Notes: a model not told the origin generated them from the sequence alone. DNA of 64,000 bases from a virus (IMGVR_UViG_3300042319_002777:1086-65085), one strand, 5' to 3'. Shown: positions 284 to 60,490, numbered from the stretch's first letter. A program made the numbers and translations.

Positions 284-293
284 CGGGAAAACT
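284..293 (+). promoter_or_regulatory. Putative late promoter CGGGAAAACT (copy 1)
   Basis: Exact motif 22 nt before ATG 316. Confidence 0.75.
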
Positions 294-315
294 GAGGCAC
301 GGCTTGAATGCCCCC

Positions 316-564
316 ATGCCCGACCGCTCCCCCACGCTCCGCCTGTTCCAAGGCCTCTGCGTCGCCGTGCTCCGCCGCGATGGCCCGGCAGCGCGGCAGG
401 GCCTGCGGATGCTCACAGCCGTGGCCGACGACCCGGAGGGGGAGCAGATCCTGCGGCTGCTGACCGCCAACCTGGACCCCGAGGGCCGGTACTGGCTGGG
501 CACGCTCCATGGGGCCCGCAAGGGCCTGGAAGATCCGGCGGCGGGAAAACTCAGGGCAGCCTGA
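316..564 (+). CDS. Hypothetical late protein
   Basis: ORF MPDRSPTLRLFQGL... at the motif-typical spacing. Confidence 0.7.
   Translation: MPDRSPTLRLFQGLCVAVLRRDGPAARQGLRMLTAVADDPEGEQILRLLTANLDPEGRYWLGTLHGARKGLEDPAAGKLRAA
542..551 (+). promoter_or_regulatory. Putative late promoter (copy 2)
   Basis: Exact motif 25 nt before ATG 577. Confidence 0.75.
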
Positions 565-576
565 CCCGCGCCGCCG

Positions 577-1080
577 ATGCTCGCCCCTGACCCCCTCTGG
601 CGCCCCACGGCCACCAGCACGCGCAACGATCGGGACCTGATCAGGACTTACATCGGCTGGCCCGCCACTGAGGGGAGCCTGGTGGAGTTGACCCAGCAGA
701 TGAACGCGGTCGCCACGCACAGCCCCAGCACCGTGACGCAGATCCAGGCGTGGCTGGACGAGATCGTGAACCTGGAGGAGATCCAGGCCGATGAGATCGA
801 CGCGGGCACTGCTCACCTCGGGAACGCCGAGGAATACGAAGGCCCGATCCCCGGCACCTCGCCCACGCGGGATGAGCAGCTGAATCAGGCCGGCAAGCTG
901 GCGTGGGACACCTCCCTCCTAAAGGCCCGCTACCGCTTTGGCGGCGGCGCCAGGGCCACGGCGCAGGGGCAGCGGGACGAGCGGACCCAAGCGCTGATCA
1001 ACCGGATCGCCACGGCCCTCAACGTGCCCCGGATCGCCCCGCAGGGGGTGAGCGGCGCGGGGATGTTGCTGAGGAGCTGA
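577..1080 (+). CDS. Putative head-tail adaptor/virion protein
   Basis: 167 aa ORF in the neck region, preceded by the late motif; function inferred from position. Confidence 0.55.
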   Translation: MLAPDPLWRPTATSTRNDRDLIRTYIGWPATEGSLVELTQQMNAVATHSPSTVTQIQAWLDEIVNLEEIQADEIDAGTAHLGNAEEYEGPIPGTSPTRDEQLNQAGKLAWDTSLLKARYRFGGGARATAQGQRDERTQALINRIATALNVPRIAPQGVSGAGMLLRS

Positions 1081-1136
1081 GCAGGGGCGCCATCGCCCGC
1101 CGCACCTCTGATCAGCACACCCTCACGGCCAAACCC

Positions 1137-1220
1137 GTGTCACACCAAATTGAAGGGTCCGAGCTTTTATCCAAGCGTGTCACCAAACATCGATTTAGGC
1201 GGGGAATTATTGAGGCGTGG
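1137..1220 (+). pseudogene. Possible truncated N-terminus of a cyanophage HNH endonuclease
   Basis: VSHQIEGSELLSKRVTKHRFRRGIIEAW resembles the leader before CAYCG in such HNH proteins; the Cys/HNH part is absent. Confidence 0.35.
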
Positions 1221-1234
1221 CCTGGCGGGTCCAG

Positions 1235-1244
1235 CGGGAAAACT
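1235..1244 (+). promoter_or_regulatory. Putative late promoter (copy 3)
   Basis: Exact motif 22 nt before ATG 1267. Confidence 0.75.
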
Positions 1245-1266
1245 GCAGGCAGTCGCTCACAGACCA

Positions 1267-1350
1267 ATGCCAGCAGGTGGAATGCCCTACTTCGGCGGGA
1301 TGCCCGGCAAGCCCAAGGCCGGCAAGAAGGCCGCCAAGCCGATGAAGTGA
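1267..1350 (+). CDS. 27-aa Lys-rich micropeptide MPAGGMPYFGGMPGKPKAGKKAAKPMK
   Basis: Has its own late motif at canonical spacing; GC3-rich codons. Confidence 0.65.
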   Translation: MPAGGMPYFGGMPGKPKAGKKAAKPMK

Positions 1351-1361
1351 GCCCAGGACCA

Positions 1362-1371
1362 CGGGAAAACT
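1362..1371 (+). promoter_or_regulatory. Putative late promoter (copy 4)
   Basis: Exact motif 22 nt before ATG 1394. Confidence 0.75.
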
Positions 1372-1393
1372 GCGAGCAGTAGACCCCGATCCC

Positions 1394-2746
1394 ATGGCCC
1401 GCGGCGGCAGCAGAGGCAGACGCACCAGCTATGCCCGCGACAACAGCGGGCGATTTGCCTCGACTCCCGGCGGTGGCCCCTCGAAGCGGAGCACGCCGGC
1501 CACCAGGCGAGCGGCCAGGCCCAAGGTCACCGGTGGCACCCTCGGGGCCCGTGGGAGCCTCCGCCGCAGCCGCGCCAAGCTGGCCGCCAAAGACCCGGCC
1601 GATCGCAGCCTGCGGGGATCGCTCAGCCTGCGGGCGCAGAAGGGGGCCGTCACCAAGGGCGCCAACCGGCTCGGGAAGGTGCGGGCCGCCTCCACGGTGC
1701 GGATGGCTCGGAAGGGGCCGGCGGGGGTGATTCGGAAGGGCGGGAAAGTTGCGGCCAAGCCTGTGGCGGCGGCCAAGTCAGCGGTGAGGGTGATTCGCCC
1801 CAATCGCCCCGCAATGCGGCCAGGGCCCACAGCCGATCGCGGCAAGATCAGCGAGTACGTGGGCGCGGTGAGAGGGGCCCGGCGGCGGCTCAGCAACGCC
1901 AAGCCAGGCACCGCCAACGCAGCCGAGGCAAAGCAAGGCCTCAAGGACAACCGGCAGGCACTGAGCCGCCGCATTCAACGGGAGCGGGGTGCTCGCCGTG
2001 GCCTGAAGCCGGCCACCTCGCAGCAGGTTCTCACTGGCACGGTTCCGGCGCCTCCTGCCAGGCGTATGAAGGCCGCACGGCCGGCGGGGACGGTGGTGAA
2101 GCCGAAGGGGTTGAAACCTGGGGCGATTGCGGGGAGGAAGGGGGCGAAGGCTGCTGCGGCCAAGCCCGGCAAGGCCAAGGCGGCGTCAGCGCCAAAGATC
2201 AACGGCAAAGAGTGGACCTCCTTGAGCCGTCTCCGGGGAGCGGTTCCATTTGATCGAGGGAGAGGGCAGACCGGGTACTTTATCCCTGGTTCATCCTTGA
2301 CTCCTGCAAAGCGAAATAAGCTAGGGCTAGGCGCATTTAAGTCGGAAGTTAGTGGAGGCAACTTCACCGCGCAAAGGCACACTCAAGGAAGTCAAGAGGG
2401 CTGGATTATCAGCCCAAGAACCCAGCGCGGCGAGACTCCTATTCAGATTCAGCGGGCCAAGTCATCCAAGAAACCGAAAACAGCAGACGACTTGCTGACA
2501 CAGGCAACACGAATTGAGGCCGTGGGTCGTCGTATGTCTCGGGCCGCCCGCACAGGCTTCAGGGATCGTCAGATTGAGGCCAGGGCCGTGCGTGCAGCAA
2601 AGGCGGCGAGGCAACGGGCCTTTGACATGCAAAAGCCACCATCCAAGGCCGAGCTGAAAAGACAGGAGCAACGGCTCAATTCACCGACCACCGCAGGGCT
2701 AAACGCTCGCATTGCGCGTGACTACGCCGCGAGAGGCCGCCGCTAA
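1394..2746 (+). CDS. Highly basic Arg/Lys/Ala-rich protein, RDNSGRF family paralog 1
   Basis: N-terminus RRTSYARDNSGRFASTPGGG; very few acidic residues. Confidence 0.8.
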   Translation: MARGGSRGRRTSYARDNSGRFASTPGGGPSKRSTPATRRAARPKVTGGTLGARGSLRRSRAKLAAKDPADRSLRGSLSLRAQKGAVTKGANRLGKVRAASTVRMARKGPAGVIRKGGKVAAKPVAAAKSAVRVIRPNRPAMRPGPTADRGKISEYVGAVRGARRRLSNAKPGTANAAEAKQGLKDNRQALSRRIQRERGARRGLKPATSQQVLTGTVPAPPARRMKAARPAGTVVKPKGLKPGAIAGRKGAKAAAAKPGKAKAASAPKINGKEWTSLSRLRGAVPFDRGRGQTGYFIPGSSLTPAKRNKLGLGAFKSEVSGGNFTAQRHTQGSQEGWIISPRTQRGETPIQIQRAKSSKKPKTADDLLTQATRIEAVGRRMSRAARTGFRDRQIEARAVRAAKAARQRAFDMQKPPSKAELKRQEQRLNSPTTAGLNARIARDYAARGRR

Positions 2747-2749
2747 CCC

Positions 2750-3220
2750 ATGCCCACCCCCTTCGCCCCTTTTGCAAACCTCCGCATCCTCTGGCGGCGC
2801 CCCACCGCAGCGGCTACCAGCCTGCGGGAGGGGCTGCAGCGGGCCACTGATCTGGTGGTGATTGAGGCCTTTGCTGAGGCCCAGGACCCCGGCGGCGAGC
2901 GGGAGAGTGGCGGGCGCTCCATCGGCTCGGGCGGCATCGAGGGCAACATCACCCGCTGGGCCGTGGTGCCATCCGGCGCCAACTGGCTGGACGAGGGGGG
3001 CGCTTGGAGTTGGACCGATACCGGCCTCAGGCCCACGGGGCTCCCCCGCGGCGAGAAGCTGGAGGCGTTCATGGGCGACCTGGCCAGCCTGCCGGCCACC
3101 ACCGAGTCGGAGCGCGGCTGGGTCACGATCGCCACCCTCTCGGGCGTGGGCGGGATCGATGCGGTGATCCGGGCCGCTGCAGGCGACGAGTTCACCGGCG
3201 CCTTTGCGGCGGGGCGATGA
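2750..3220 (+). CDS. Putative head-closure/neck protein
   Basis: 156 aa; position upstream of a gp10-like gene. Confidence 0.5.
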   Translation: MPTPFAPFANLRILWRRPTAAATSLREGLQRATDLVVIEAFAEAQDPGGERESGGRSIGSGGIEGNITRWAVVPSGANWLDEGGAWSWTDTGLRPTGLPRGEKLEAFMGDLASLPATTESERGWVTIATLSGVGGIDAVIRAAAGDEFTGAFAAGR

Positions 3221-3717
3221 GGGTCGCCACCAGGGCCACGGTGCGCGTGAACCCGGCCACCCTCGCCAGGGCGCAGCGGGCATCAGAGGCGGCGGCGCGA
3301 GTGGTGTTCCCAGAGCTGAACAGCGCCTTTCAAGATGCGCTGGGCACCAAGGCATGGGACTGGCCACGGGTGACCATGCGCGGGGGCGCCTTCCGCCGCG
3401 ATGGCAGCCGCACCAGGGGCCGCCCGGTGGGATCGCCCCGGAACATCGTGGACCTCGGCACCCTGCGGGCCAGCAACTCCTTCCAGATCAGCGGCAACCT
3501 CTGCACCTTCCGATGGGCCGTGGGCTATGCCACGGCGGTTCACTACGGCGCGAACATCCACCCCTGGGGCGACAGGACCCGCCCCCTCGTGAACCTGCCC
3601 GCCCGGCCCTGGACTTCGGCGGTGATCGGGACCATCAAAGTTCCCGGCATCGAGCCCTATGACTATCGGGCCCAATACCGGGCATCATTCATCCAAGCCT
3701 TCCGCAGCCTGAAATGA
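3217..3717 (+). CDS. HK97 gp10-like tail-completion protein
   Basis: PRNIVDLGTLRAS...YATAVHYG...PARPW motifs; ATGA overlap with the previous gene. Confidence 0.65.
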   Translation: MRVATRATVRVNPATLARAQRASEAAARVVFPELNSAFQDALGTKAWDWPRVTMRGGAFRRDGSRTRGRPVGSPRNIVDLGTLRASNSFQISGNLCTFRWAVGYATAVHYGANIHPWGDRTRPLVNLPARPWTSAVIGTIKVPGIEPYDYRAQYRASFIQAFRSLK

Positions 3718-4490
3718 CCTTTGATCTCCTCCCCTGGGAAACCGCCCCCCAGGCCCCCGAGCAGGCCGCCGCCACGATCGAGTGGAACGGCGGGGAAATG
3801 ACCGTCCCCCGGCTGGGCTACCTCACTGTGGACGAGATGCAGGGGATCCGGGAGATTGACCCACAGAACGCCCTTTATCGCCTGATCACCGCCGCTGCGG
3901 TGGCCCTCAGCCAGGCCGCCCCCGATCACACTGCCCACTGGTGCTACGGCCTGCTCACCCGCCTGCTGGCCCAGGAGCAGGGCGCCAGCATCGGCCGGAT
4001 GAGCCCCGAGGAAGAGGCGGTGCAGGTGCTTTACGCCGGGATCATCGGCCCCTTCCTGGAGCAGGCCAGAGCCATCACCAACCGTGTCGTGATTCGGTCC
4101 GTCACCGTGATCCTGAACCGGATCAAGCCCGCCTGGACCGACGAGCAGACCCGCAGGCTCCCCGCCCCCCTGCTGGGGATCCTCCACGCCTTTGAGCAGG
4201 AGGAGGAGCGGGCCGGCGCTGGCCTGCAGCAGGACCCGGCGGCCGAGATGCGGGCGCTGGAGGAGGCGCTGGGAAAGTTGCAGGAGGTCAGCAGCTCGAT
4301 TGCGACCGACCCGACTGGGCCCGAGCCTTCTGGGACTGCCGCAGATTCTGGCCCGGAGCTCCAGAGTTCAGCCGCGAGCGCTTCGGGAAGCTCCCCGCCG
4401 GCTATGTCCTCCAGGCCCTCCAGGCGGGCCACGCCGCCGAACGCGAAAGGCTTCACCGGGAAGAGAAAGGCGTCGCCCAAATCGCCCTGA
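3714..4490 (+). CDS. Tail assembly chaperone (gpG-like), zero-frame product
   Basis: Contains the in-frame slippery G GGA AAG at 4271-4277; low-complexity tail after the site. Confidence 0.65.
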   Translation: MTFDLLPWETAPQAPEQAAATIEWNGGEMTVPRLGYLTVDEMQGIREIDPQNALYRLITAAAVALSQAAPDHTAHWCYGLLTRLLAQEQGASIGRMSPEEEAVQVLYAGIIGPFLEQARAITNRVVIRSVTVILNRIKPAWTDEQTRRLPAPLLGILHAFEQEEERAGAGLQQDPAAEMRALEEALGKLQEVSSSIATDPTGPEPSGTAADSGPELQSSAASASGSSPPAMSSRPSRRATPPNAKGFTGKRKASPKSP

Positions 4491-4951
4491 TCCTCGCCGA
4501 GACCAACCGCAATCGCGAAGCCCAGCCCGAGCCCTACAGCCTCCGGGACTTCTGCTTCTGGGTGGAGGTAGCCGAGAAGCCGCGCCCCCCGAGCGAGGCC
4601 GGCGCCGCCCTGCTGGAGCTACTGGAGCGCAACCTCCTGCCGGGGTTCGTGCTCGACGGCCCATGGCTGGCCGACCTGGAGGCCCAGGGCCGTGGCGTCA
4701 CCCCGCCGCCGCGGCTGTGTTGGGCGGCCGAGGATGCGATCCTCCTAGCCCCCTATCGGGTGGATGCAGGCCACTGGGGCGGATTCCTCGTGGCCCAGGC
4801 CAGTGCCGCGGGCCGAGTGCGGGAGTTCGCCTCTGAGGCCGGCGAGGTCGTGGCCCTGCGGGTGCCCGCCGATGCGGTGCCGGGGCGATCGTTTACCGCT
4901 GCCCAGGCCGGCGCGGTGCTGGTGCTGGCGAGCCGGGAAAACTCCAGGTAG
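4271..4951 (+). CDS. gpT-like -1 frameshift extension of the tail chaperone
   Basis: The -1 frame is open from the GGGAAAG heptamer (GKVAGGQQLDCDRPDWARAFW...) to TAG 4951. Confidence 0.7.
   Translation, partial: GKVAGGQQLDCDRPDWARAFWDCRRFWPGAPEFSRERFGKLPAGYVLQALQAGHAAERERLHREEKGVAQIALILAETNRNREAQPEPYSLRDFCFWVEVAEKPRPPSEAGAALLELLERNLLPGFVLDGPWLADLEAQGRGVTPPPRLCWAAEDAILLAPYRVDAGHWGGFLVAQASAAGRVREFASEAGEVVALRVPADAVPGRSFTAAQAGAVLVLASRENSR
4934..4943 (+). promoter_or_regulatory. Putative late promoter (copy 5)
   Basis: Exact motif 25 nt before ATG 4969. Confidence 0.75.
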
Positions 4952-4968
4952 AGAAACACCCCCTGGCC

Positions 4969-5835
4969 ATGCCCTCGACCGTTGATTACGCCGCCGCGCT
5001 GGATATCCAGCATTTCATCGTCCCAATGCGACTCGCATCCGTGGCACTGGAAGATGCCGCCGCCGCCGCCGCCAACAACGGTGCGAACCTCAGCGCCTGG
5101 CTGAACACCGCCAACGCGATCAGCGGCGCCGGGGCTGTGAGCACCAGCGGGGAGGCCTCCACCTTCCAGCTGAGCGTGAACGGCGTGGTCCTCACAGTCA
5201 GCAATGCGGCGCTCGCCACCAACGTGGTGACCCTGACCCTCAACGCCGCTGCTGGCGCGCTCGTGGGTGATCGGATCACCGTGGCCGCCCTTCCGAGCCC
5301 CTTCGCGAGCTGTAACGGCACCTTCACCGTGACGGGGGTTACCACCGCCTCTCCCTTCACCGTGAGCTACGCCCTCACCGGCGCCAACATCACCTCGGCC
5401 GCCGTTGCCGCTGGCACCGTGACCACGGGCCTCTACCCCTTGGATGGAACCGGCAAGCCGATCCAGCTCCTCAACGTCACCGGCGCCCCCCTCTCGACGC
5501 AGGAACAGGACGAGAAGGTTCTCACGCACGATCAGGTAACCCGCGGCGCTTCAATCTCTATCGGAATCAATTCCGACTCCAGCATCGCTTTTAAGGGCAT
5601 GACCGTGCATAAATCGGTAGATCACAAGATCATGGAGGTCATTCGTCAGTTAGGTGTTGCCGAGAAGCTCGCCGTTAAGTATCTGCGGGTCGGACCTGGC
5701 GGCACCACTGAGAAGAAGCTGTGCTACGGCCGAATCACATCCAAGCAAGAGGAGGGCGATGCAGGCGCTCTGGTGAAGTACGGCGCCAGCCTGATGGTGC
5801 TGGGCCAGGTTCACACCATCTACGACAACGCCTGA
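4969..5835 (+). CDS. Major tail tube protein with an inserted beta-rich domain
   Basis: 288 aa; tube-like C-terminal half; Ala/Thr/Val-rich insert (VGDRITVA...NGTFTVT). Confidence 0.65.
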   Translation: MPSTVDYAAALDIQHFIVPMRLASVALEDAAAAAANNGANLSAWLNTANAISGAGAVSTSGEASTFQLSVNGVVLTVSNAALATNVVTLTLNAAAGALVGDRITVAALPSPFASCNGTFTVTGVTTASPFTVSYALTGANITSAAVAAGTVTTGLYPLDGTGKPIQLLNVTGAPLSTQEQDEKVLTHDQVTRGASISIGINSDSSIAFKGMTVHKSVDHKIMEVIRQLGVAEKLAVKYLRVGPGGTTEKKLCYGRITSKQEEGDAGALVKYGASLMVLGQVHTIYDNA

Positions 5836-5836
5836 A

Positions 5837-6007
5837 GTGGATATTGACGGTCAGGTGCATTTGGTGGTCTCAGACAGCCGGCCAGGGCAGCGCCTGTGGC
5901 GCGTCTGCTCCGGTGGCTCCTGCCTGGTGCATCGGAGCCTCGGGGTGGTGATGGGGCACTACCGGGCGCTGCTGATCAGCCAGGGACGAGAGGTTGGCGA
6001 GGGGTGA
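5837..6007 (+). CDS. Small hypothetical protein (56 aa)
   Basis: GTG-start ORF filling the gap up to the terminator. Confidence 0.45.
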   Translation: MDIDGQVHLVVSDSRPGQRLWRVCSGGSCLVHRSLGVVMGHYRALLISQGREVGEG

Positions 6008-6012
6008 GCATG

Positions 6013-6046
6013 AAAAAGCCCAGGGGTTCTGACTCCCCTGGGCTTT
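6013..6046. terminator. Bidirectional intrinsic terminator
   Basis: AAAAAGCCCAGGGG-ttctgact-CCCCTGGGCTTT between convergent genes. Confidence 0.85.
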
Positions 6047-6072
6047 GTTGAAGCATCCCGCAGTAGTCTAGG

Positions 6073-6612
6073 TCAAAACTTGGAATCGGGCAGCAGCTTC
6101 AGCAAGGCAAGGCACTCGGCCTGATCGGCAAAAAACCCGTCCCTCAGCCGCACTTTCGATAGCGGAAGATGGTGCTCGCCCGCACCTGTATTCTGAGCAA
6201 GCTCGTGTGCGCTGTCTGCCGCGACACTCAGCGCCTGCCGGATCCGATTCAGCGTGCCCTCCTCAATTGACAGGCAAACCGGCGGAATGTCCACGCTGGA
6301 AGAGGGAGTTAGCCCAATGCCTTGACAATCGGGGCTCTGATAAACCGGGGGAGCACCCTCTTGCGCTGTAGGCGGTGGTGGGGCGTGGAGGTTGTTGGCC
6401 ATTTCCAGGATTCGATGTGTGCCGATGTTCATGCTGTATCCAGGGAAGGCATGGTAACCCACCTCACGCAGGAAGGCGGCAAGGCCGCGTCGGTTGTTTG
6501 GGTGAAAAAGGTATCCCTCAACTAGGCCCCTTGAGACTGAGGCATTGCAAAGGGCGTCGCCCGCCCTCAATACTTCCGGCTTCAGATCCGGGAACTCAAT
6601 ATGCTTGGCCAT
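6073..6612 (-). CDS. Hypothetical protein, paralog of 34365-34718
   Basis: Shares HxEFP, RRxLAAFLRE and ANNLHxPPPP motifs. Confidence 0.7.
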   Translation of the reverse strand: MAKHIEFPDLKPEVLRAGDALCNASVSRGLVEGYLFHPNNRRGLAAFLREVGYHAFPGYSMNIGTHRILEMANNLHAPPPPTAQEGAPPVYQSPDCQGIGLTPSSSVDIPPVCLSIEEGTLNRIRQALSVAADSAHELAQNTGAGEHHLPLSKVRLRDGFFADQAECLALLKLLPDSKF

Positions 6613-6642
6613 GATGCGTCTCCGTGGCAATAGTGATGGGGA

Positions 6643-6924
6643 TCAGGACAGGGGCGACCCAGCCCGCTCCAGTCTTCTCAGCCCGTCGCTCAGCAGGCCC
6701 TCCGCCAGCTGGTCAACGGTGACCCCCTGCACGGCGGCCATCGCCTCCAGCCGCTCCACCTCGTCGGGAGAGAGATCAACCAGCAGCTCGGCCATGGGGT
6801 CCTCCTCCCTCCACAGGCTGTAGAACCAGGCGCCGCAGGCGAAAGCCTGCAGCACTATCAGGGTGAGCGCGATGGCCTTGAGGGTGTCCATGTGATCTGG
6901 AAATGGGTGATGATTCGGGTGCAT
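6643..6924 (-). CDS. Small membrane protein with a possible RHH-like C-terminus
   Basis: N-terminal hydrophobic helix; VDLSPDEVERLEAMAAVQGVTV. Confidence 0.55.
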   Translation of the reverse strand: MHPNHHPFPDHMDTLKAIALTLIVLQAFACGAWFYSLWREEDPMAELLVDLSPDEVERLEAMAAVQGVTVDQLAEGLLSDGLRRLERAGSPLS

Positions 6925-7093
6925 CCTAGATCAGGATAGGGACAGTGCAACCGCGCAGCATCTGTGCTTGCACTGGGCGATCTGGGATAACCTGCTGCGG
7001 TCCGGGTCGGCCCGAATACAACACCAGTCCCTGACTGGGAATCAAGGCGGGGGGGGGGGTGGTGTTCATGGGTTCAGCGGGGGTGGTGGGTGG

Positions 7094-7471
7094 TCATTCG
7101 CCTTTCTGTTCACAAGGTGACAGGTCGTAAGTTTTTGAAAGCATGAGTGCGGCTGCTGCGTACAAAACACCTGTGGCGTGTGTTGCCGATAGGTCAGTGT
7201 TGGCGCATTCTTTGAGGATTCTTTGCAGTAGATCGATTTCGGGATCCACGTAAGAATCCTGCGCAACCCTTGCCGTCTGCAGCGGCAAGGCGGCAATCCT
7301 CAGCGCCCAGTTCCCATCTGGTCGCTCTTGCCATTCCCCGGCGCGGATACTGCGCCCGCCATCGGTTTCAACCTCAATGAATCGGGGGCCTTCGGGTCCT
7401 GGCGGGCCATCAAAGATCACATTGATCGGCGCAAAGGTGTCCATGGGTTTTGTAGGTTGATGGGTGGTCAT
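7094..7471 (-). CDS. Hypothetical phage protein
   Basis: INVIFDGPPGPEGPRFIEVE...GEW small-protein-like motif. Confidence 0.65.
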   Translation of the reverse strand: MTTHQPTKPMDTFAPINVIFDGPPGPEGPRFIEVETDGGRSIRAGEWQERPDGNWALRIAALPLQTARVAQDSYVDPEIDLLQRILKECANTDLSATHATGVLYAAAALMLSKTYDLSPCEQKGE

Positions 7472-7498
7472 GGGGCCGTGGCCAATGGGCGGCGCTGC

Positions 7499-7780
7499 TC
7501 ACGCCACCGGCCCCACGCGATGCACGGCCCAGTAGGCAACGGGCCCTGCCTGCTGCAGCCTGCAGTCCAGCAGCTGGTGTTCCAGCAGCGCCGAGATGCG
7601 CCAAAGGACCGTGCCTTGATCGCACGCCCATCGGGCCTGCAGCTCCAGAGAGGTGATCTCCGGGATCAGGCCCGCCCGGATGCGCATTCCCAGCCATTGC
7701 GACAGATCGAGGCAGTCGAGCAGGGTGGTGGGCTGCACATAGGCGCGTCGTGCCAGCAGGGTGCGGACGAGATCAGTCAT
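7499..7780 (-). CDS. Hypothetical protein (winged-helix-like)
   Basis: Coupled ORF in the reverse operon. Confidence 0.55.
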   Translation of the reverse strand: MTDLVRTLLARRAYVQPTTLLDCLDLSQWLGMRIRAGLIPEITSLELQARWACDQGTVLWRISALLEHQLLDCRLQQAGPVAYWAVHRVGPVA

Positions 7781-7997
7781 GCCTCCCACCCCACTTCTTC
7801 CGCTGGAACCCCCGCACTGAATCCCGGCGCATCAGCACGTGGGGGCCACCGCCGATGGGGATCAAGCACACGTGACCCGGCAGGTCGGGCAGGCCGCGAG
7901 GGGTGTAGGTGCGGCCATCGGGCCCGGCCCAGAAGTCACCGAGGCGGAACCGATCGGCGCGAGGCGTGATGATCCCGGTGAAGGCGGTTTTTTTCAT
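7773..7997 (-). CDS. Hypothetical protein
   Basis: ATGA-coupled ORF MKKTAFTGIITPRADRF... Confidence 0.55.
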   Translation of the reverse strand: MKKTAFTGIITPRADRFRLGDFWAGPDGRTYTPRGLPDLPGHVCLIPIGGGPHVLMRRDSVRGFQRKKWGGRHD

Positions 7998-8365
7998 GGC
8001 CGACCCCCTTCGCTGCAGCAATAGGCCTCGCAGGATCGAGCCCAGTCGTGGTTGTCCGTCGCCTCGGGGAAGTGAAGACTGCAGAAGCCGTAGAACCTTC
8101 GCTCCGTGCCGCCCGTTGTGCGCCGATATGGCCTCTCCTCAAACAGGCGGCACGACCGGCACGTGCGAACGATGTCGGCCACGGGGATGCGTGGCAGCTC
8201 TGACGCATAGGAGGCCCACATCATGCCAACCCGCACACGGCGCACCGCCTCGGCATTCATATCCAGCCGGCGGCCGATGACCGCGTGAGCGATGTCGGCG
8301 GGGGTCTCCAGGATGGCCCTAGCGAGCGTCTCCCTGGTCGCGTCGTCGTAGGTGCGGCGGCTCAT
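7994..8365 (-). CDS. HTH plus Cys-cluster protein, paralog of 51850-52323
   Basis: EAVRRVRVG...PR...CRSC...C..HFPEA...A.SCEAY. Confidence 0.65.
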   Translation of the reverse strand: MSRRTYDDATRETLARAILETPADIAHAVIGRRLDMNAEAVRRVRVGMMWASYASELPRIPVADIVRTCRSCRLFEERPYRRTTGGTERRFYGFCSLHFPEATDNHDWARSCEAYCCSEGGRP

Positions 8366-9447
8366 GCAGCCTCCTGCAGCACGCTGATCCAGACGGTTCC
8401 CATGTCGAGCAGAGGCAGGATCCGATCCCTCAGATCCTGGTTGTGGAGGCGGATGCAGCCGAGGGTCGGGTGCAGCTCCTGCCGAGGGTTCCAGGCCCCC
8501 GGCCACCCGCAGGCACTGCCGCCGCCGTGCAGCATGATCCCGTCTCTATAGGGCCGTGACGTGGGCCCCTCCTGCCCTTCCAAGCCCTCCATGTCGAACG
8601 AATACCAGCCGTAGGCGCGGCGATCGGGGGTGAAGGTTGCGGTCCGGTCCTGTTCGTAGTCCCGATGGATGCCCTTCGGGTTGATCCGGTAGAGCCCCGG
8701 CGGGGTGTCGGTGCCCGTGCGGTTCCATTCGGCCTCTTTGCCCTGCCCACGGCACAAACAGGGGATCCTCCACAGCCGGCGCCCGTCATGGGTCCAGGCC
8801 GTGAGGGTTTCGTTCACGTCGTTGGCGATCAGGTGGTGATCACCGGGCTTCAGATCGGGGCGGATCTTTGGACCCACCATCCCCGGCGGCCAGATCGGCG
8901 GGCCCTGGGGGACGGGCATGATCGGGGGGCGTGGTGGCGTGGCGGTCGTGACAGGGGCGGGAGCGCCGGCCACGAACAGGGCCACCTCTGCCGCCCGGCG
9001 CCGCACCAGGCCCGCCATGATCTTCTTCCCGGCCTTGCTCCAGCGGGGCAGCTCGGCCTTCACCACGGCCTCGGGGTTCTCGCCGGCCAACAGGCGCCGC
9101 CGCAGGGTGGAAATCTCCAGGCTCCTGGGGCCCACGTTGAAGGTAAAGCTGATCAATGCCGCCTGCTGCTTCGGGGTCCACGTCCCGGCCATCGGGAGCA
9201 GCCGGAACACCTCGGCGGCGGCGCGGTTGATGTCCGTGGTCAGCATGCCCTCAGCGACCGCCTGGGTGATCACGGCGCCCTCCACCACGTCGGACCCGGT
9301 GTGCCCGTAGCCGATGGTCCAGGGATCGCCCCCGCTGCCGGGGTCGGGGTAGGCGGTGAGGTGGCACCCTTCGAACTCGGCGACGATCTGCCGGGCTGGG
9401 GCCAGCCACTGGGGATCGGGGGGAGTGGAAGCGCTCTTGGTGCTCAT
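8362..9447 (-). CDS. Endolysin: GH24 lysozyme fused to an L,D-transpeptidase (YkuD)-like domain
   Basis: FEGCHLTAYPDPG..GDPWTIGYGHT and GLVRRRAAE; Pro-rich linker; DTPPGLY...GIMLHGGG...PTLGCIRL. Confidence 0.9.
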   Translation of the reverse strand: MSTKSASTPPDPQWLAPARQIVAEFEGCHLTAYPDPGSGGDPWTIGYGHTGSDVVEGAVITQAVAEGMLTTDINRAAAEVFRLLPMAGTWTPKQQAALISFTFNVGPRSLEISTLRRRLLAGENPEAVVKAELPRWSKAGKKIMAGLVRRRAAEVALFVAGAPAPVTTATPPRPPIMPVPQGPPIWPPGMVGPKIRPDLKPGDHHLIANDVNETLTAWTHDGRRLWRIPCLCRGQGKEAEWNRTGTDTPPGLYRINPKGIHRDYEQDRTATFTPDRRAYGWYSFDMEGLEGQEGPTSRPYRDGIMLHGGGSACGWPGAWNPRQELHPTLGCIRLHNQDLRDRILPLLDMGTVWISVLQEAA

Positions 9448-9614
9448 CAGAGAGGCCATTCGGAGATCGTCTGCCAGCCCTCGCCCTGCAGCCGGGCCAC
9501 CTCGGCGGCGACCTGCTCGGGGAGCACGTCCACCACCAGCGACCTGCTGCCCTCCTGACCGGGCGGGAGGGCCGTTGGCTCCTCACAGATCAGCCGAACG
9601 AGGCCGCAGGTCAT
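9447..9614 (-). CDS. Small hypothetical protein
   Basis: Coupled between the NblA-like gene and the endolysin. Confidence 0.6.
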   Translation of the reverse strand: MTCGLVRLICEEPTALPPGQEGSRSLVVDVLPEQVAAEVARLQGEGWQTISEWPL

Positions 9615-9829
9615 CGCCGCATCCCCTGGCGCATCGCCCAGGCCGTGGCTGCCTTTTGGGCGTACCACGACTGGAGCAGGAGCTTCGCCAGGTTGCGGAG
9701 GCTCAGCACGTCGTCCACCTCGTCAAGGAGGCGGCCTATGCGCTCAATCTCAAACGCCTGGGCGGTGCTCAGCTCCATGCCTGCGGGGTCCGCGGGGAGG
9801 AAACCGGCAACAGGATCGGGGGCTGGCAT
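9611..9829 (-). CDS. nblA: NblA-like phycobilisome degradation protein
   Basis: 72 aa two-helix protein, ELSTAQAFEIER...LRNLAKLLLQSW, resembling the NblA LSLEQQF pattern; recognised by eye only. Confidence 0.55.
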   Translation of the reverse strand: MPAPDPVAGFLPADPAGMELSTAQAFEIERIGRLLDEVDDVLSLRNLAKLLLQSWYAQKAATAWAMRQGMRR

Positions 9830-9896
9830 GGCAGCAGAATAGCTACCCAAATCCAGATAAGCATCAGGTCGGCGGGAGGATCCATAACTGGGCCAG

Positions 9897-9906
9897 CGGG
9901 AAAACT
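9897..9906 (+). promoter_or_regulatory. Putative late promoter (copy 6)
   Basis: Exact motif 26 nt before ATG 9933. Confidence 0.75.
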
Positions 9907-9932
9907 GCGGCAGAAGCTCCGACCGCTCCGCC

Positions 9933-11123: not shown

Positions 11124-11125
11124 CC

Positions 11126-11566: not shown

Positions 11567-11662
11567 TCGGGCACCACCACCCCAAGACCGAAAGCCCTTG
11601 GCACCACTAACGGCGCCGAACTTTCGCCGGCCCCAGAGACCGCTCCGGGCACCACCGCTGCA
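11565..11662 (+). repeat. 98-bp element, inverted copy at 45531-45628
   Basis: Ungapped manual alignment 73/98 identical, with a 19-bp identical core ACTAACGGCGCCGAACTTT. Confidence 0.8.
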
Positions 11663-11675
11663 GCGCCCCTGATGG

Positions 11676-11685
11676 CGGGAAAACT
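11676..11685 (+). promoter_or_regulatory. Putative late promoter (copy 7)
   Basis: Exact motif 25 nt before GTG 11711. Confidence 0.75.
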
Positions 11686-11710
11686 GCACCAGTAGCGCGG
11701 CGCGGCTCGG

Positions 11711-19646: not shown

Positions 19647-19673
19647 GAAACAGTTAAAGCGTGACGTGTCAAC

Positions 19674-19683
19674 CGGGAAAACT
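19674..19683 (+). promoter_or_regulatory. Putative late promoter (copy 8)
   Basis: Exact motif 20 nt before ATG 19704. Confidence 0.75.
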
Positions 19684-20167: not shown

Positions 20168-20177
20168 CGGGAAAACT
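20168..20177 (+). promoter_or_regulatory. Putative late promoter (copy 9)
   Basis: Exact motif 20 nt before ATG 20198. Confidence 0.75.
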
Positions 20178-21675: not shown

Positions 21676-21685
21676 CGGGAAAACT
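21676..21685 (+). promoter_or_regulatory. Putative late promoter (copy 10)
   Basis: Exact motif 41 nt before the scaffold ATG. Confidence 0.75.
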
Positions 21686-22563: not shown

Positions 22564-22573
22564 CGGGAAAACT
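22564..22573 (+). promoter_or_regulatory. Putative late promoter (copy 11)
   Basis: Exact motif at the start of the 159-nt capsid leader. Confidence 0.75.
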
Positions 22574-22575
22574 GC

Positions 22576-24301: not shown

Positions 24302-24592
24302 ATGAGCTTTCTATCAATCAGCGTTTGCCCTGGCATGGACTGGGACCCAGCCGCCGAATGGGCCAGGCCAGCTCAAGGCAACGACGCTGCCGAGGAGCAA
24401 GTCGCAGCCCCCGAGGACCCCGCGCAAGGGCAGGGAAGGCTGAGCCGGCTTACTGGGCGCCGCCGGGCTCGCACCGATAGCGGCACCTTTCAGGCGGACG
24501 ACCCGGCCACGCCAGCGGTGAACGAGGCCTACCAGGAGGTGGCGGAGCCCAGCGCCGAGGCCGAGTCCGAGCCGGGAAAACTGAGGCAGTGA
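24302..24592 (+). CDS. Small protein with an RARTDSGTFQADDPATPAVNEA motif
   Basis: ATG 24302; RxxxGxF motif related to the RDxxGRF proteins. Confidence 0.65.
   Translation: MSFLSISVCPGMDWDPAAEWARPAQGNDAAEEQVAAPEDPAQGQGRLSRLTGRRRARTDSGTFQADDPATPAVNEAYQEVAEPSAEAESEPGKLRQ
24573..24582 (+). promoter_or_regulatory. Putative late promoter (copy 12)
   Basis: Exact motif 38 nt before TTG 24621. Confidence 0.7.
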
Positions 24593-29793: not shown

Positions 29794-29803
29794 CGGGAAA
29801 ACT
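29794..29803 (+). promoter_or_regulatory. Putative late promoter (copy 13)
   Basis: Exact motif 22 nt before ATG 29826. Confidence 0.75.
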
Positions 29804-56693: not shown

Positions 56694-56749
56694 GCATTCA
56701 CTGATGCAATAATGGGACAACAAACAGGCCCAAATCCGGTGCGTTGAGC

Positions 56750-57661
56750 ATGGCCACCACCACCCGGCGCCTCAGGGCCGCCCGCAGCCAGAAGGTCCGG
56801 CCCGACCCGTGTCCTGATCTGGACCGGCTCAAGGGGTTCCCGCCGCCTACGGCATGGTCGGAGCAGCTGGCGGCCGACAACCTCCTTTTGGCCGCCAGCA
56901 TGGCCAACCGGATGGCCCGGTCCACCCGGATGCCGTTTGACGACCTGTTCCTGGTGGCCGCCAGAGGCCTGCTCAACGGCTGCCGCAAGTATGACCCCGA
57001 GCGCCTTAACCCGGCCACCAAACGCCCCTATGCCCTGTCCACGTGCGTGGTGCCCTACGTCCGTGGGGCCATGGCCCAGTGGCTGCGGGACCGGGGCCAC
57101 AGCTCCGGGGTGAAGTTCCCCGATAAGTGGAGGGACGTGGCGCCCACGGTGCGGCGCCTCGCCGCCGACGGGGCCACCCTCTCGGCCGTGGTGGAGGCCA
57201 CCGGGCTCGCGCCTGAGGAGGTGACGGCGATCCTTGAAGCACAGGGGGCCACGCGGCTCCTCGACCCTGAGGCCCTCCATGCCAACCGTGAGCCCGACCC
57301 GTGGGATGAGATCGAGAGCTACGACGAGCTGAACGAGGTGCTGCGGATCGCAGACGAGGCCCATGCCGCTCTGCGGTGGGCGGATCGGCAGATGCTGGAA
57401 GCGGCCTGGGATGCCCAGCCCCGGCGCCAGGTGGCGCGGATGCCCCATGGGCAGTTCCTGCGGCACGCCGAGGGCATCATTTGGGGCGAGCGACTGAAGC
57501 CGGCGCCAGAGCAGCAGGCCCTGGCCTTGGTCGTGCCTGACGGGGCTGCAGGGGGCCCCGAGGGCAAGGCGGGGCGACGCATCACGGATCCGGTTGAGAT
57601 CCTGCGGGTGGCGGAGCAGTTGGATTTGTTTGGTGCCTGTCGGGATGGGGGTGGGGCATGA
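56750..57661 (+). CDS. Phage sigma factor, SigF/SigB (group 3)-like
   Basis: Region 2: NLLLA...FDDLFLVAARGLLNGCRKYDP...LSTCVVPYVRGAMAQWLRD; region 3 HTH; degenerate region 4. Confidence 0.85.
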   Translation: MATTTRRLRAARSQKVRPDPCPDLDRLKGFPPPTAWSEQLAADNLLLAASMANRMARSTRMPFDDLFLVAARGLLNGCRKYDPERLNPATKRPYALSTCVVPYVRGAMAQWLRDRGHSSGVKFPDKWRDVAPTVRRLAADGATLSAVVEATGLAPEEVTAILEAQGATRLLDPEALHANREPDPWDEIESYDELNEVLRIADEAHAALRWADRQMLEAAWDAQPRRQVARMPHGQFLRHAEGIIWGERLKPAPEQQALALVVPDGAAGGPEGKAGRRITDPVEILRVAEQLDLFGACRDGGGA

Positions 57662-57771
57662 GCACCACCCTGCACCTCCGCGAGGCCCAGTATCACGCCA
57701 TCGCCGAGCAGCGGATCAGCAGGGCCGCAGCGGCTGGGCATCAGCCCGACCTGTTCAGCCTCACCGCCTAA
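57658..57771 (+). CDS. 37-aa peptide, possible methyltransferase C-terminal remnant
   Basis: REAQYHAIAEQRI...QPDLF; coupled to the sigma gene. Confidence 0.4.
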   Translation: MSTTLHLREAQYHAIAEQRISRAAAAGHQPDLFSLTA

Positions 57772-57799
57772 CCCGCCCCTGTCACGACCCCCACGCAAG

Positions 57800-57809
57800 C
57801 GGGAAAACT
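57800..57809 (+). promoter_or_regulatory. Putative late promoter (copy 14)
   Basis: Exact motif 22 nt before GTG 57832. Confidence 0.75.
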
Positions 57810-57831
57810 GGGCCAGAAGGACTAGGCACCG

Positions 57832-59370
57832 GTGCAGCAGCAGATCAGCCACCCGAGCGATAAGGGCGATCTGCCGTCGTTCCAGCACCCGAAGCTGCGG
57901 GAAGTGATGGCCGACCTCGATCTGGTCGCCGACTGCTGGGATCTGCTGCGAGGCGACGCGAAGAAGCGGCACCTGCCAAAAGAGGCCGGCGAGCCCCGGC
58001 AGGCCTATGAGGCGCGGGTGGGGCGCAGCAGCTATCCGAGCTTTTTCAAGGATGGCGTGAGCGCCTTCGCGGGGGTGCTGAGCCGTTACCAACTGCGAGG
58101 GGTGCAGCAGGGTCTCCTCGACGCGGCCCAGGACATTGACGGCGAGGGCAACAGCCTGAAGGCTTGGGGCCTCGGCACCGATGCCCTGGTGCTCCGGGAT
58201 GGCGGCTGCCTGCTGATGGCCGACGCGCCGCAGGGGACACCCGAGAGCAGGGCGCAGGAGCGGGCCCAAGGCCGCCGGCCCACGTTCTCAGCCGCCGAGC
58301 GCCGGAACGTCCTGAATTGGCGGACCGTCAAGCGGGGCGGACGGCGGGTGCCGATCGCCGTCACGATCCTGGAGTGGCACGAGGTAAAAGACGGGGATTA
58401 CGGCGTCAAGCTGGAGCCCAGATACCGCGTGATGCAGGGGGGCAGGTGGCGCCTCCTGGAGATAACCGGCAACGGCGGCAAGGGGGCTTCGGCCAGCTTC
58501 ATCATCAAGGTGGCCACCGACGATGACGGGCGCCCGCAGGAGGGCACCTTCACCGGGCCCAGGGGCGAGGCGCTGGAGAGCCCGCCGGTGGCCTGGTACG
58601 GCGTCAGCCGCGACGGCTTTGGAGAGGGCGGCCTGCCGCTGCTGAGCCTGGCGAACCTCACCCTGGACTGGTTCCGCGAATACTCCGACCTGAAGGAGCT
58701 GCTGCACCGGTGCGCTCTGCCGGTGGCCGTGGTGAAGGGGCGCCGGATGGCTGGGCCCAATGGCGAGCCACTGCCGCTGATGCTGGGGCCGAACAGCGTG
58801 GTGGAGTTCCCGAACGCAGGCTCCGGGGAGGGGTTGGAGTTCGCCGAGCCCTCCGGCAGCAGCCTGGACAAACACCTGGCCCACCTGGAGGGGATCGAGA
58901 AGCTGATTGATCGCAGCACCCTGAGCTTCCTGTTCAGCGGCAGCGGTGAGCGCACCGCCACGCAGGCCGAGCTGGAAGGGGCCCAGCTGCAGGCCACCAT
59001 CACGGCGATGGCCGAGAGCAAGAGCAGCGCATGGGAGAGCCTCTTCCAGCTTTGGGGGGCCTTCACCGGCGAGCGGCCCCAGCCCGGTGCGGGCCTTGAC
59101 CTGTTGCCAGGGGTCACCGACAAGCCCGTGGATGATGCCTTATTGACCCTCGCCGGCACGCTCTACGACAAGGGCCTTCTCATGCGCGAGACGGTCACGC
59201 ACCTGGCGCAGAAGCGGGGCATGCTCCGCCCTGGTGCCGATGGCCAGAAGGAGGCCGCCGATCTGGCTGCCGAGGATGAACGGCAGCAGGCGTTGATGAA
59301 CCCGCCGGCACCGGGGGCGAATGACCTCGCAGGCGACGACGTGGACGCGCAGGGGCTGCCGCTGAACTGA
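57832..59370 (+). CDS. Portal protein (DUF4055-like)
   Basis: HLPKE..E...AYEAR, DIDGEGNSL, PLLSLANL, RTATQA; between TerL and MuF. Confidence 0.85.
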   Translation: MQQQISHPSDKGDLPSFQHPKLREVMADLDLVADCWDLLRGDAKKRHLPKEAGEPRQAYEARVGRSSYPSFFKDGVSAFAGVLSRYQLRGVQQGLLDAAQDIDGEGNSLKAWGLGTDALVLRDGGCLLMADAPQGTPESRAQERAQGRRPTFSAAERRNVLNWRTVKRGGRRVPIAVTILEWHEVKDGDYGVKLEPRYRVMQGGRWRLLEITGNGGKGASASFIIKVATDDDGRPQEGTFTGPRGEALESPPVAWYGVSRDGFGEGGLPLLSLANLTLDWFREYSDLKELLHRCALPVAVVKGRRMAGPNGEPLPLMLGPNSVVEFPNAGSGEGLEFAEPSGSSLDKHLAHLEGIEKLIDRSTLSFLFSGSGERTATQAELEGAQLQATITAMAESKSSAWESLFQLWGAFTGERPQPGAGLDLLPGVTDKPVDDALLTLAGTLYDKGLLMRETVTHLAQKRGMLRPGADGQKEAADLAAEDERQQALMNPPAPGANDLAGDDVDAQGLPLN

Positions 59371-59371
59371 G

Positions 59372-60463
59372 ATGGCCCCCACCGTCACCATCGGCGACCA
59401 ACAGCTCCAGCTAGCCGACGACTACGCCGCCGCCCTCGACGCGATCGGCGACCGGGCCACCACCAACACGCAGGCGGCTCTCCGCCGGTCCCTGGCCCGC
59501 ACCCTGCGGGATCTGCGGCGGTATTACGGCCAGTTCGTGGACCCCGAGCGCCCGGACCGGCCCAGCGCCGATGGCGTGACCCGCCGACCGGGGTCCTATT
59601 CGATCGCCGATGGCTCGGCCAAGTTCCGCAAGCTCCTGGAGCTGGCCCAGGCCTTCGCGTCGGATCGGGAGCTGGCCTGGCTGCAGAACCGCTACCGCGA
59701 GGACTTCGCCGAGGCGGTGGCCCTCGGCGGTGACCTGGGACAGCAGCTCGCGCAGACCGCCGACCCTGACGCGACCGCACAGGGGGTGTTCGTGGGTGCC
59801 AGCAGGGCCGCCGTGGAGGCCGCCGCCAGCACCGCATCGGCCTACATCCGGGGCGAGGTGGAGAGCTTCCGCGACAACATCGCCCGGATCGTCACCGATG
59901 GCATCGGCCGCGGGAAGGGGCCCCGCGTGCTGGAGGGAGAGATCAGGACCGCCCTGCAGGGGGCCCGCGATCCGCAGGGGCTGAACAACCGGCTGGGCCT
60001 GGAGCAGCGGGCCGAGCTGATCGCCCGATCGGAGCTGGCCAACGCCTACGTGGGCGCCCAGAAGGCAACGGCAGCCCGCAACGGGTTCGGCTATGCCCGG
60101 TGGATCGCCACCAAGGATGAGCGGACGTGCGCGGTGTGCGCCTCGCGCCATGGCCGGATCTACCGGCTCGACGAGATGGTGGGCACGCTTCATCCTCGCT
60201 GCCGGTGCAGTCTCTCCCCCGTGGCCACCGAAGCCGTGGAAGAGGCCGATCCCGCCCTCAGGGCCACCCTGTTGCGGGAGGATTACTGGGAGCGCTCGCG
60301 CAAGGCCGTGGCCGAGGAGTTTGCCGCCGCCAAGGGTGGAGCCGATCAGGGCTGGCCCTTCGCCCGTGCCTCCCAGGTGCTGGAGGAGGCCGTGCGTAAG
60401 CCCTCCCCCAGCGAGCGGCGGCAGTATCCCGACATTGAGCGGGCGCCGGCGCCGGTGGGGTAG
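59372..60463 (+). CDS. MuF/SPP1 gp7-like minor head protein
   Basis: RAELIARSE, WIATKDERTCAVCASRHG, HPRCRC. Confidence 0.9.
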   Translation: MAPTVTIGDQQLQLADDYAAALDAIGDRATTNTQAALRRSLARTLRDLRRYYGQFVDPERPDRPSADGVTRRPGSYSIADGSAKFRKLLELAQAFASDRELAWLQNRYREDFAEAVALGGDLGQQLAQTADPDATAQGVFVGASRAAVEAAASTASAYIRGEVESFRDNIARIVTDGIGRGKGPRVLEGEIRTALQGARDPQGLNNRLGLEQRAELIARSELANAYVGAQKATAARNGFGYARWIATKDERTCAVCASRHGRIYRLDEMVGTLHPRCRCSLSPVATEAVEEADPALRATLLREDYWERSRKAVAEEFAAAKGGADQGWPFARASQVLEEAVRKPSPSERRQYPDIERAPAPVG

Positions 60464-60480
60464 GGGCGCCCAAGGGGAAG

Positions 60481-60490
60481 CGGGAAAACT
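60481..60490 (+). promoter_or_regulatory. Putative late promoter (copy 15)
   Basis: Exact motif 22 nt before GTG 60513. Confidence 0.75.

Follow-up and report, generated by a model that had tools for sequence, protein, structure and literature searches.

The window analysed here is a 64,000-nt stretch comprising bases 1086-65085 of a 65,085-bp IMG/VR virus record (IMGVR_UViG_3300042319_002777), in which a 10-nt word, CGGGAAAACT, is repeated upstream of many genes and in which a sigma factor is encoded. A 127-bp terminal repeat in the record indicated a circular assembly, of which the window covers nearly the whole (~65 kb), with a guanine-cytosine (GC) content of 60-69%. The gene layout was obtained from a crude self-trained codon-usage gene call combined with family scans. 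Virion genes on the + strand, including those for the portal, a MuF-like minor head protein, the tape measure, a tail protein, a scaffold-like protein and the major head protein, ran from 57.8 kb around the circle to ~30 kb. They were followed by an early region (30-46 kb) with a large serine recombinase, RecT, a PDDEXK nuclease and regulators, and then by a + strand block (46-57.7 kb) that terminated in terS, terL and the sigma gene. The presence of the recombinase, RecT and the nuclease indicated a temperate phage, and the virus is a temperate cyanobacterial siphovirus with its own recombination genes. Its TerL was nearest to those of the Synechococcus siphoviruses S-CRES1-3 and S-CBS2 (36-39%) and of P-SS2 (34%), and a megablast search of window positions 1-20000 against GenBank phages returned no close relative.

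An exact word scan found 15 copies of CGGGAAAACT in the window, all on the + strand (Table 1), as the initial annotation of this DNA had reported. In 100 dinucleotide-preserving shuffles, 0.10 copies were expected (sd 0.33, largest 2). When one mismatch was allowed, 17 sites were found against 2.93 expected; the two sites added, at 12805 and 21244, were both on the - strand inside coding sequence and represented no above-chance excess. Because there were 15 perfect copies and no + strand near-copies, the + strand set was all-or-none. No copy was found between 29803 and 57800, a span that includes the integrase/RecT/regulator region, even with one mismatch included, which bore out the claim that the motif is missing from the early region at 30-57 kb. 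The claim of strict strandedness held within the window but not for the whole record, where a 16th exact copy lay on the - strand at genome positions 1077-1086, inside a + strand open reading frame (ORF), with its last base at window position 1. This copy was followed by GGAAAACC with no convincing - strand ORF behind it. With ~0.05 copies expected per strand, it may have arisen by chance, or it may mark an antisense start.

Table 1. Motif copies and other features of the window. Gaps run from the end of the motif to the start codon.
Feature	Position	Strand	Start codon	Gap (nt)	Downstream gene or remark
Copy 1	284..293	+	ATG 316	22	82-aa ORF
Copy 2	542..551	+	ATG 577	25	167 aa; motif in 3' end of upstream ORF
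Copy 3	1235..1244	+	ATG 1267	22	27-aa basic ORF
Copy 4	1362..1371	+	ATG 1394	22	450 aa, without family match
Copy 5	4934..4943	+	ATG 4969	25	Tail protein (phrog_38654, E 7e-20); motif in 3' end of upstream ORF
Copy 6	9897..9906	+	ATG 9933	26	396 aa; first + strand gene past - strand island
Copy 7	11676..11685	+	GTG 11711	25	Tape-measure protein (PhageMin_Tail, E 3e-40)
Copy 8	19674..19683	+	ATG 19704	20	147 aa, paralogue of next gene
Copy 9	20168..20177	+	ATG 20198	20	149 aa, paralogue of preceding gene
Copy 10	21676..21685	+	ATG 21727	41	Weak scaffold-like match (phrog_4708, E 9e-4)
Copy 11	22564..22573	+	GTG 22733	159	Major head protein (phrog_212, E 5e-33); alternative start, 61-aa ATG ORF at 22594
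Copy 12	24573..24582	+	GTG 24722	139	775-aa ORF; motif in 3' end of upstream ORF
Copy 13	29794..29803	+	ATG 29826	22	93 aa; last before integrase/early region
Copy 14	57800..57809	+	GTG 57832	22	Portal (DUF4055, E 1.6e-14); directly past sigma gene
Copy 15	60481..60490	+	GTG 60513	22	496 aa; after MuF-like minor head gene
Phage sigma	56750..57661	+			303 aa, divergent SigB/F/G-like
QLDLF codons	57617..57631	+			Sigma residues 290-294; resembles beta-clamp-binding motif
TGCAATAAT	56705..56713	+			Between terL stop and sigma start
Lysis island	6073-9829	-			Endolysin and small ORFs, without motif, within late region
Endolysin	8362-9459	-			No motif
Large serine recombinase	30464-31768
PDDEXK nuclease	34715-35851	-
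RecT	37168-38580	-

The position of the motif relative to the genes was narrowly defined. As had been claimed, the gap between the end of the motif and an ATG or GTG start was 20-26 nt at 12 of the 15 sites, and it was 41, 139 and 159 nt at the others; in a dereplicated set of 77 sites, drawn from this genome and from related ones, the mode was 20-25 nt. A position table of the window sites revealed a weaker downstream G-M-R-G-C-A-G, and the same was found in the 77 sites. At 12 of the 15 sites, a YAR trinucleotide placed its A 6-7 nt past the last T of the motif, with a conserved CAG there, which was consistent with the YAG-like +1 proposed earlier for most sites. No -35 or other upstream element was detected, since no upstream position exceeded 0.27 bit in the 77 sites and none stood out in the 15. 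Likewise, no Shine-Dalgarno sequence preceded the start codons of the window sites, and no second conserved element readable by a sigma lay between motif and start codon among the 77. The lack of a shared -35 element and of a strong Shine-Dalgarno sequence was thus confirmed in both site sets. Consensus scans for sigma-70-like promoters and terminators gave no more matches than the shuffles, and the apparent - strand terminators abutting TCAGTTTTCC were rejected as artefacts of the motif's own A-run.

These spacing data also bear on the idea that the motif is itself a -35-type element and that the mRNAs are leaderless, beginning at the ATG or GTG. With gaps of 22-26 nt, the motif would lie at roughly -36 to -23 from the start codon, and the -35 elements of extracytoplasmic function and group-3 sigmas are often GGAAC-like. 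However, the gap varied between 20 and 26 nt and reached 41-159 nt at three sites, and region 4.2, the reader of the -35 element, was unrecognisable in the phage sigma described below. The leaderless model was rejected because no -10-like conservation was found before the start codons, and we regard it as very improbable.

At the level of gene arrangement, the motif occurred at 13 junctions between + strand late genes and ahead of the first gene, and at 0 of 11 junctions with overlap or a spacing of ≤3 nt. There were 15 sites for ~40 ORFs, each site heading a cluster of 1-4 mostly overlapping genes, and 8 late + strand gaps of >3 nt carried no motif. This points to ~15 transcription units with 1-4 genes each rather than to a separate promoter for every gene, and the gene-by-gene regulon initially described was overstated. 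The assignment of the motif to virion genes was supported by the portal, tape-measure, tail and major head genes; its assignment to lysis-type genes was not, as the endolysin gene, the sole lysis gene that could be recognised, lies on the - strand without a motif. Two tandem paralogues (19704-20147 and 20198-20647) shared 60% identity, and each carried the motif and a near-identical 20-nt leader, so the promoter was evidently duplicated together with the gene. The 27-aa basic ORF at 1267-1350 (MPAGGMPYFG...KKAAKPMK) had its own motif copy and was conserved in relatives; contigs from RNA libraries carried Lys/Pro-rich length variants of it. Past copy 12, inspection by eye suggested a small TTG-initiated ORF (~24621-24725) whose end overlaps the 775-aa ORF at a GTGA, and such an ORF would explain the long gap at this site.

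A second alternative is that the motif acts in the RNA 5' leader, either as a ribosome-loading or translation-enhancing sequence or as a site for RNA processing or stability that a phage factor recognises. The narrow spacing to the start codon (20-26 nt at 12 of 15 sites; mode 20-25 nt in the 77), the lack of a Shine-Dalgarno sequence and the restriction of the motif to genes without translational coupling are all in keeping with this idea. Some sites also lie within the upstream ORF, so that read-through RNA would include the motif. In addition, a hairpin at 22574-22610 directly follows copy 11 and opens the ~150-nt leader of the major head gene (-33.6 kcal/mol for 22574-22640, z -2.4), which keeps a role at the RNA level alive. 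On the other hand, the distance to the start codon is 41-159 nt at three sites, and no shared RNA structure or pairing context emerged when the 15 sites were folded from -40 to +70; a search of Rfam gave 0 matches. Further evidence on this alternative came from related viruses and is given with them below.

The ORF that ends 139 nt before copy 14 encodes a sigma-70-family, group-3-like protein, which is a divergent relative rather than an equivalog of the known families. It matched the NCBIfam models SigF (NF005644, E 9.2e-11, aa 38-137, corresponding to region 2, the part for core binding, -10 recognition and melting) and SigBFG (TIGR02980, E 1.6e-8), and a PDB sequence search matched it to Bacillus stearothermophilus sigma-F (1L0O_C). 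A profile of 23 family members aligned with the same sigma-F chain over residues 41-225 (chain to 212, E 4.5e-9), including the STxxVPxIxGxxxxxLRD block of region 2, and with Staphylococcus aureus SigB (8x6g_H, E 4e-8) to query position 222 (chain 217). In this profile alignment, regions 2, 3 and 4.1 were alignable. The AlphaFold2 model of the protein had a predicted local distance difference test score of 70. In a Foldseek search with it, all matches listed were sigma factors, among them sigma-S, sigma-28, sigma-32, SigB and SigA, with ~240 aligned columns and a probability of 1.0. The corresponding TM-scores were 0.23-0.27 with root-mean-square deviations of 19-27 A, presumably because the predicted domain arrangement is unlike that of a polymerase-bound sigma. 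The lone Pfam match on the ORF was a weak Raf1_HTH, which was discarded, the sigma identity being shown instead by the NCBIfam, PDB sequence and fold searches; precomputed Pfam annotations placed Sigma70_r2 on 14 of 60 sigma homologues.

Region 4.2, the helix-turn-helix that reads the -35 element, was not recognised in the sigma gene: Pfam Sigma70_r4 gave no match at E up to 1, and the alignments ended earlier, although the model contains helices at residues 184-244 with moderate confidence. An unrecognisable region 4.2 fits promoters without a -35 element. Over residues 38-157, the identity of the protein to the sigmas of S-CBS2 and S-CRES was only ~32-36% (the P-SS2 sigma was not retrieved in that search), and the terS-terL-sigma synteny is also annotated in S-CBS2, S-CRES1 and P-SS2. 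In the gap from the terL stop codon to the start of the sigma gene, TGCAATAAT was picked out by eye as a weak candidate for an extended -10 element of a host-type sigma driving the sigma gene; it occurs once in the window and also in 11 of 100 shuffles.

The motif scan of related genomes suggested with the initial annotation was carried out on loci found by sigma alignment. The IMG/VR scan gave 70 loci, and co-occurrence was counted in 56 viral loci with sigmas at least 44% identical and a GC content of 42-69%, a set that was not dereplicated and holds many near-identical members. The exact 10-mer was present in 55 of the 56 loci, downstream of the sigma gene and on the same strand: the 340 kb that follow sigma held 183 copies and the 289 kb that precede it held 3, all from one clade, while the opposite strand held 0. 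Of 19 relatives examined at the sigma-portal junction, 17 had a contig reaching past the sigma stop codon. In 16 of these, a portal-like start was closely preceded by the motif, either exact or as a recognisable variant, whereas L047 has GGGGGAAAACT there. We also searched five cyanobacterial metagenome-assembled genomes that had been reached through sigma-like loci, four of them of ~2 Mb, and found 0, 0, 0, 2 and 12 copies. The 12 copies were confined to a single strand of two contigs that are likely phage; the sigma gene lies on one of the two. These counts indicated that the motif is phage-private, as judged from its distribution in sequence.

In more distant sigma clades, the exact word was replaced by the clade's own variant at the sigma-portal junction and before further late genes. 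The L061 variant, GGGAACCCTGA, occurred in 3 copies, and the L058 variant, GGAAAGCT, occurred at 3 forward and 3 reverse sites; GGGAACCCT is likewise a clade variant. L066 had GGAAAACT at 5 forward sites (4 preceded by C instead of G, 1 in the form of the window) and 1 reverse site; L060 had 3 copies of GGAAAACT, 2 of them preceded by C; and L067 had GGGAAAAC[C/T] at 7 forward and 2 reverse sites. The core GGAAnnCT was retained in 4 of the 5 clade variants, L067 being the one that differs. The motif thus co-occurs and co-varies with the sigma lineage, suggesting a reader that is specific to the phage lineage and co-evolves with it, which argues against a signal for the host ribosome or a host RNase.

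In S-CBS2, which infects Synechococcus and whose sigma is ~34% identical, CGGGAAAACT was not found, and other repeated upstream motifs were found instead. In this genome (loci L073/L074: 7385, 36118, 36153 and 41495), ATCGGCATCCTAG lay ~20 nt upstream of several late genes, TATACTG occurred at 13 + strand and 5 - strand places, and TATACTGG stood just before the portal-like gene, which is annotated as a DNA primase. ATCGGCATCCTAG and TATACTGG may be the promoter signals of S-CBS2 itself. The top repeated word of the genome, GGAATTCA, was dismissed as a promoter candidate, as it forms a tandem repeat in an ORF annotated as 'triple helix repeat-containing collagen' (record positions 38798-39916).

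These comparisons told against the RNA-leader explanation in two respects. The variants follow the sigma clades, whereas a signal for the host ribosome would be expected to stay constant between similar hosts, and S-CBS2 lacks the motif although it infects Synechococcus. On balance, we consider a role in the RNA leader improbable.

A third alternative, equally lineage-specific in its reader, is that the motif is the DNA site of some other phage late regulator, such as an activator or a loading site for an anti-terminator, acting with a host or phage sigma. Co-occurrence and co-variation cannot separate the sigma from another lineage-specific protein, ten invariant bases resemble a dedicated DNA-binding site more than a typical -10 element, and weak helix-turn-helix-like matches, together with a weak MarR match, were found elsewhere in the genome. 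Near the motif, however, neither the upstream sequence nor the stretch up to the start codon contained another conserved element that could serve a sigma. Furthermore, the motif is asymmetric and occurs once per site, unlike typical dimeric operators; it resembles SigB/SigF -10 elements as given in the available text of PMC2532724; and in relatives the first site directly follows the sigma gene. We therefore judge this alternative unlikely, though somewhat less so than an RNA-level role.

Taken together, CGGGAAAACT probably serves the phage sigma as an extended -10-only late promoter. The earlier proposal that the copies are promoters for the phage's own sigma is the reading best supported, by the sigma fold, the co-occurrence in 55 of 56 loci and the clade variants. 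The number and placement of the copies, their link to the sigma family and the fold of the sigma are shown by these data, while the sigma as reader, the location of +1 and the late timing are inferred from them. In the mechanism envisaged, the sigma gene, which closes the + strand terS-terL block, would probably be expressed from a host-type promoter. Host RNA polymerase core would then be redirected by the group-3-like phage sigma to the 15 promoters, which start 139 nt past the sigma stop codon, before the portal gene, and run round the circle to 29.8 kb, each heading 1-4 tightly packed virion genes. The GGG of the motif would lie at about -15 to -13 and the AAAACT at -12 to -7, including A-11 and T-7. 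Bases at these two positions are those generally captured by sigma-70-family proteins. Transcription would start at the conserved CAG, 6-7 nt downstream, giving predicted leaders of 15-21 nt without a Shine-Dalgarno sequence. As for polymerases of the phage itself, the family scans found no RNA polymerase family in the large ORFs tested; PF00940, for a T7-like RNA polymerase, had no match in the genome, but control genomes were equally silent.

Several observations weigh against this interpretation. It is unusual for a bacterial promoter to have ten invariant bases and so narrow a spacing (20-26 nt) to the start codon, which could mean a role in translation. The eight motif-less late gaps and the - strand endolysin island are not accounted for by the motif, and the stable hairpin at the 22564 site includes the predicted +1 in its 5' arm. 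The sigma scored far under the curated cut-offs (41.9 versus 261 bits for NF005644 and 34.6 versus 234 bits for TIGR02980), and no Pfam sigma domain was found in the 303-aa protein, nor PF04542 in a search of the genome. Among the clade variants, the proposed T-7 is C at 4 of the 7 L067 sites, and the strand specificity of the variants is made less certain by matches on the reverse strand (3 in L058, 1 in L066 and 2 in L067), above all for L058. Moreover, since every relative comes from a single phage lineage, co-occurrence and co-variation are compatible with any lineage-specific reader and not with the sigma alone.

RNA libraries were likewise uninformative about transcript 5' ends, as they consisted of assembled contigs. 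Six metatranscriptome runs from two studies contained parts of window positions 1-10000 in this form. In two of them (X1 and X2), one 54-64-kb contig of a relative spans the whole stretch and so says nothing about transcripts. In two others from one study (X3 and X4), short low-depth contigs ran from 4967 and 4960, just past the motif at 4934, to 5866. Another contig starts at a motif-less gene border at 2747, and a loose contig end at 4854 indicated that RNA or DNA crosses the 4934 motif.

Previous studies have described promoters of a similar kind for SigB/SigF-type sigmas. Synechocystis SigF promoters have a -32 TAGGC and a -12 GGTAA, with GGGTAAG used as a search string, and Bacillus subtilis SigB promoters follow RGGXTTRA-N14-GGGTAT, according to the available text of PMC2532724. 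The motif resembles GGGTAT and GGTAA/GGGTAAG, in agreement with the initial suggestion of a SigB/SigF-like -10 element; it shares with them a GGG followed by an A-rich stretch and lies at a -10-like distance from the conserved CAG, the predicted +1. The best family and structure matches of the sigma, SigF, SigB/F/G and sigma-F, point the same way. The motif differs in having no -32/-35 partner, in reading GGGAAAACT rather than GGGTAW and in its ten invariant bases, and the sigma differs in being phage-encoded, in scoring under the family cut-offs, in its unrecognisable region 4.2 and in an extra C-terminal tail. Among cyanosiphoviruses, a group-3 sigma gene next to terL has been annotated since P-SS2, whose sigma probably reads a specific regulon according to its authors; in the available text of that work, only sigma-70 promoters were searched for and no target sequence is named (PMC2784084). 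The present genome shares the terL-adjoining group-3 sigma gene and the terS-terL-sigma synteny with P-SS2, S-CBS2 and S-CRES1-3.

In Cluster K mycobacteriophages, start-associated sequences form a strictly conserved short motif close upstream of many starts on the coding strand; they lie a few bases from the start codon and have a Shine-Dalgarno-like core. The motif studied here differs from them in lying 20-26 nt off, in having no Shine-Dalgarno sequence and in being tied to a phage sigma. No prior description of the motif, of late promoters or of sigma targets in cyanosiphoviruses was found in the literature searched, the supplements of PMC2784084 and PMC12867686 lying outside its scope. 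A phage-encoded sigma with a cognate late promoter is a known kind of system; what is new is the target sequence, its -10-only invariant character, the clade-specific variants and a possible link to the sliding clamp. The motif offers a precise, testable candidate promoter with a predicted +1 for one large, uncultured, mostly high-GC clade, and late regulons and operon heads could be defined directly from metagenomic contigs. The matched sigma and promoter variants could also serve as orthogonal expression parts in cyanobacteria.

The possible clamp link arises from the C-terminus of the sigma. The bacterial beta-clamp-binding consensus is QL[SD]LF, and the sigma family has a conserved C-terminal AEQLxLF, in which Q290 and L291 were at least 90% conserved in the 23-sequence alignment. 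In 42 of 60 close homologues, the pattern Q[LIF]x[LIM][FLW] was matched at a distance of 0-72 residues from the end of the protein, and the most compact homologues end exactly in QLDLF. Among representatives at 50% identity, the pattern was found in 19 of 53 family members versus 9 of 96 more distant sigma matches. Many further C-terminal variants were seen, including QLGLL, QMGLF, QPSLF and QGSLF; the S-CRES1 sigma ends in IQGSLF, and the P-SS2 sigma had no such C-terminal motif. No sliding clamp gene was found in the 65-kb genome with DNA_pol3_beta (PF00712) at E up to 1, a search whose control was positive in 11 of 14 genomes; any clamp partner would therefore be that of the host. A predicted complex of sigma residues 250-303 with Synechocystis DnaN (DPO3B_SYNY3) scored 0.16 against a mark of 0.32, which speaks neither for nor against binding.

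Two well-studied phages offer precedents. Late transcription of T4 employs the sigma-like gp55, gp33, the gp45 sliding clamp and -10-only promoters, and phage Mu employs MuC, which has two clamp-binding motifs and uses the host beta clamp (PMC2988020, PMC7892883 and PMC12867686 for T4 and PMC12867686 for Mu, each in its available text). Like T4, the present phage combines, as sequence features, -10-only late promoters with a phage-encoded specificity factor, and a conserved clamp-motif-like QLxLF ends the cyanophage sigma, much as gp55 and gp33 contact the clamp. Unlike T4, it has a full-length sigma (regions 2, 3 and 4.1), no gp55/gp33 pair and no clamp of its own, and the motif sequence is unrelated. 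Like Mu, it is temperate, has no clamp, has no polymerase family among the ORFs tested, and has late promoters without an evident -35 element and a candidate host-type clamp-binding motif on the late transcription factor; MuC, however, is an activator that needs sigma-70, whereas the motif here is on the sigma itself. Tentatively, the sigma might be a one-polypeptide counterpart of gp55 plus gp33, serving -10-only promoters while its QLxLF docks on host beta clamps that stay behind on replicating phage DNA, so that replication would license late transcription throughout this widespread group of picocyanobacterial siphoviruses; we hold this to be possible but doubtful. Were this the case, clamp-activated transcription, known from T4 and Mu, would gain a third, independent example, and for the first time the clamp motif would sit on a bona fide sigma-70-family protein. 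If QLxLF binds the clamp, replication-coupled late transcription would be wider than T4 and Mu, the cases treated in the available text of PMC12867686, and would be built on a conventional sigma scaffold.

A related observation concerned the sigma of S-CBS2. The annotated gene, gp077, stops early (L071 ~6560-6700; record ~57430-57570), and its +1 frame runs ~45 residues more, matches the C-terminus of S-CRES1 and reaches LQGSLF-stop past the annotated stop codon. This suggests a frameshift or a sequencing error in gp077 of that record. Among the remaining features of the window, an Atlas search with the 775-aa ORF returned only viral hypothetical clusters, and ARAGORN found 0 tRNAs. A hairpin with flanking A and T runs was observed at ~6010-6048, between the - strand island and the convergent tail gene.

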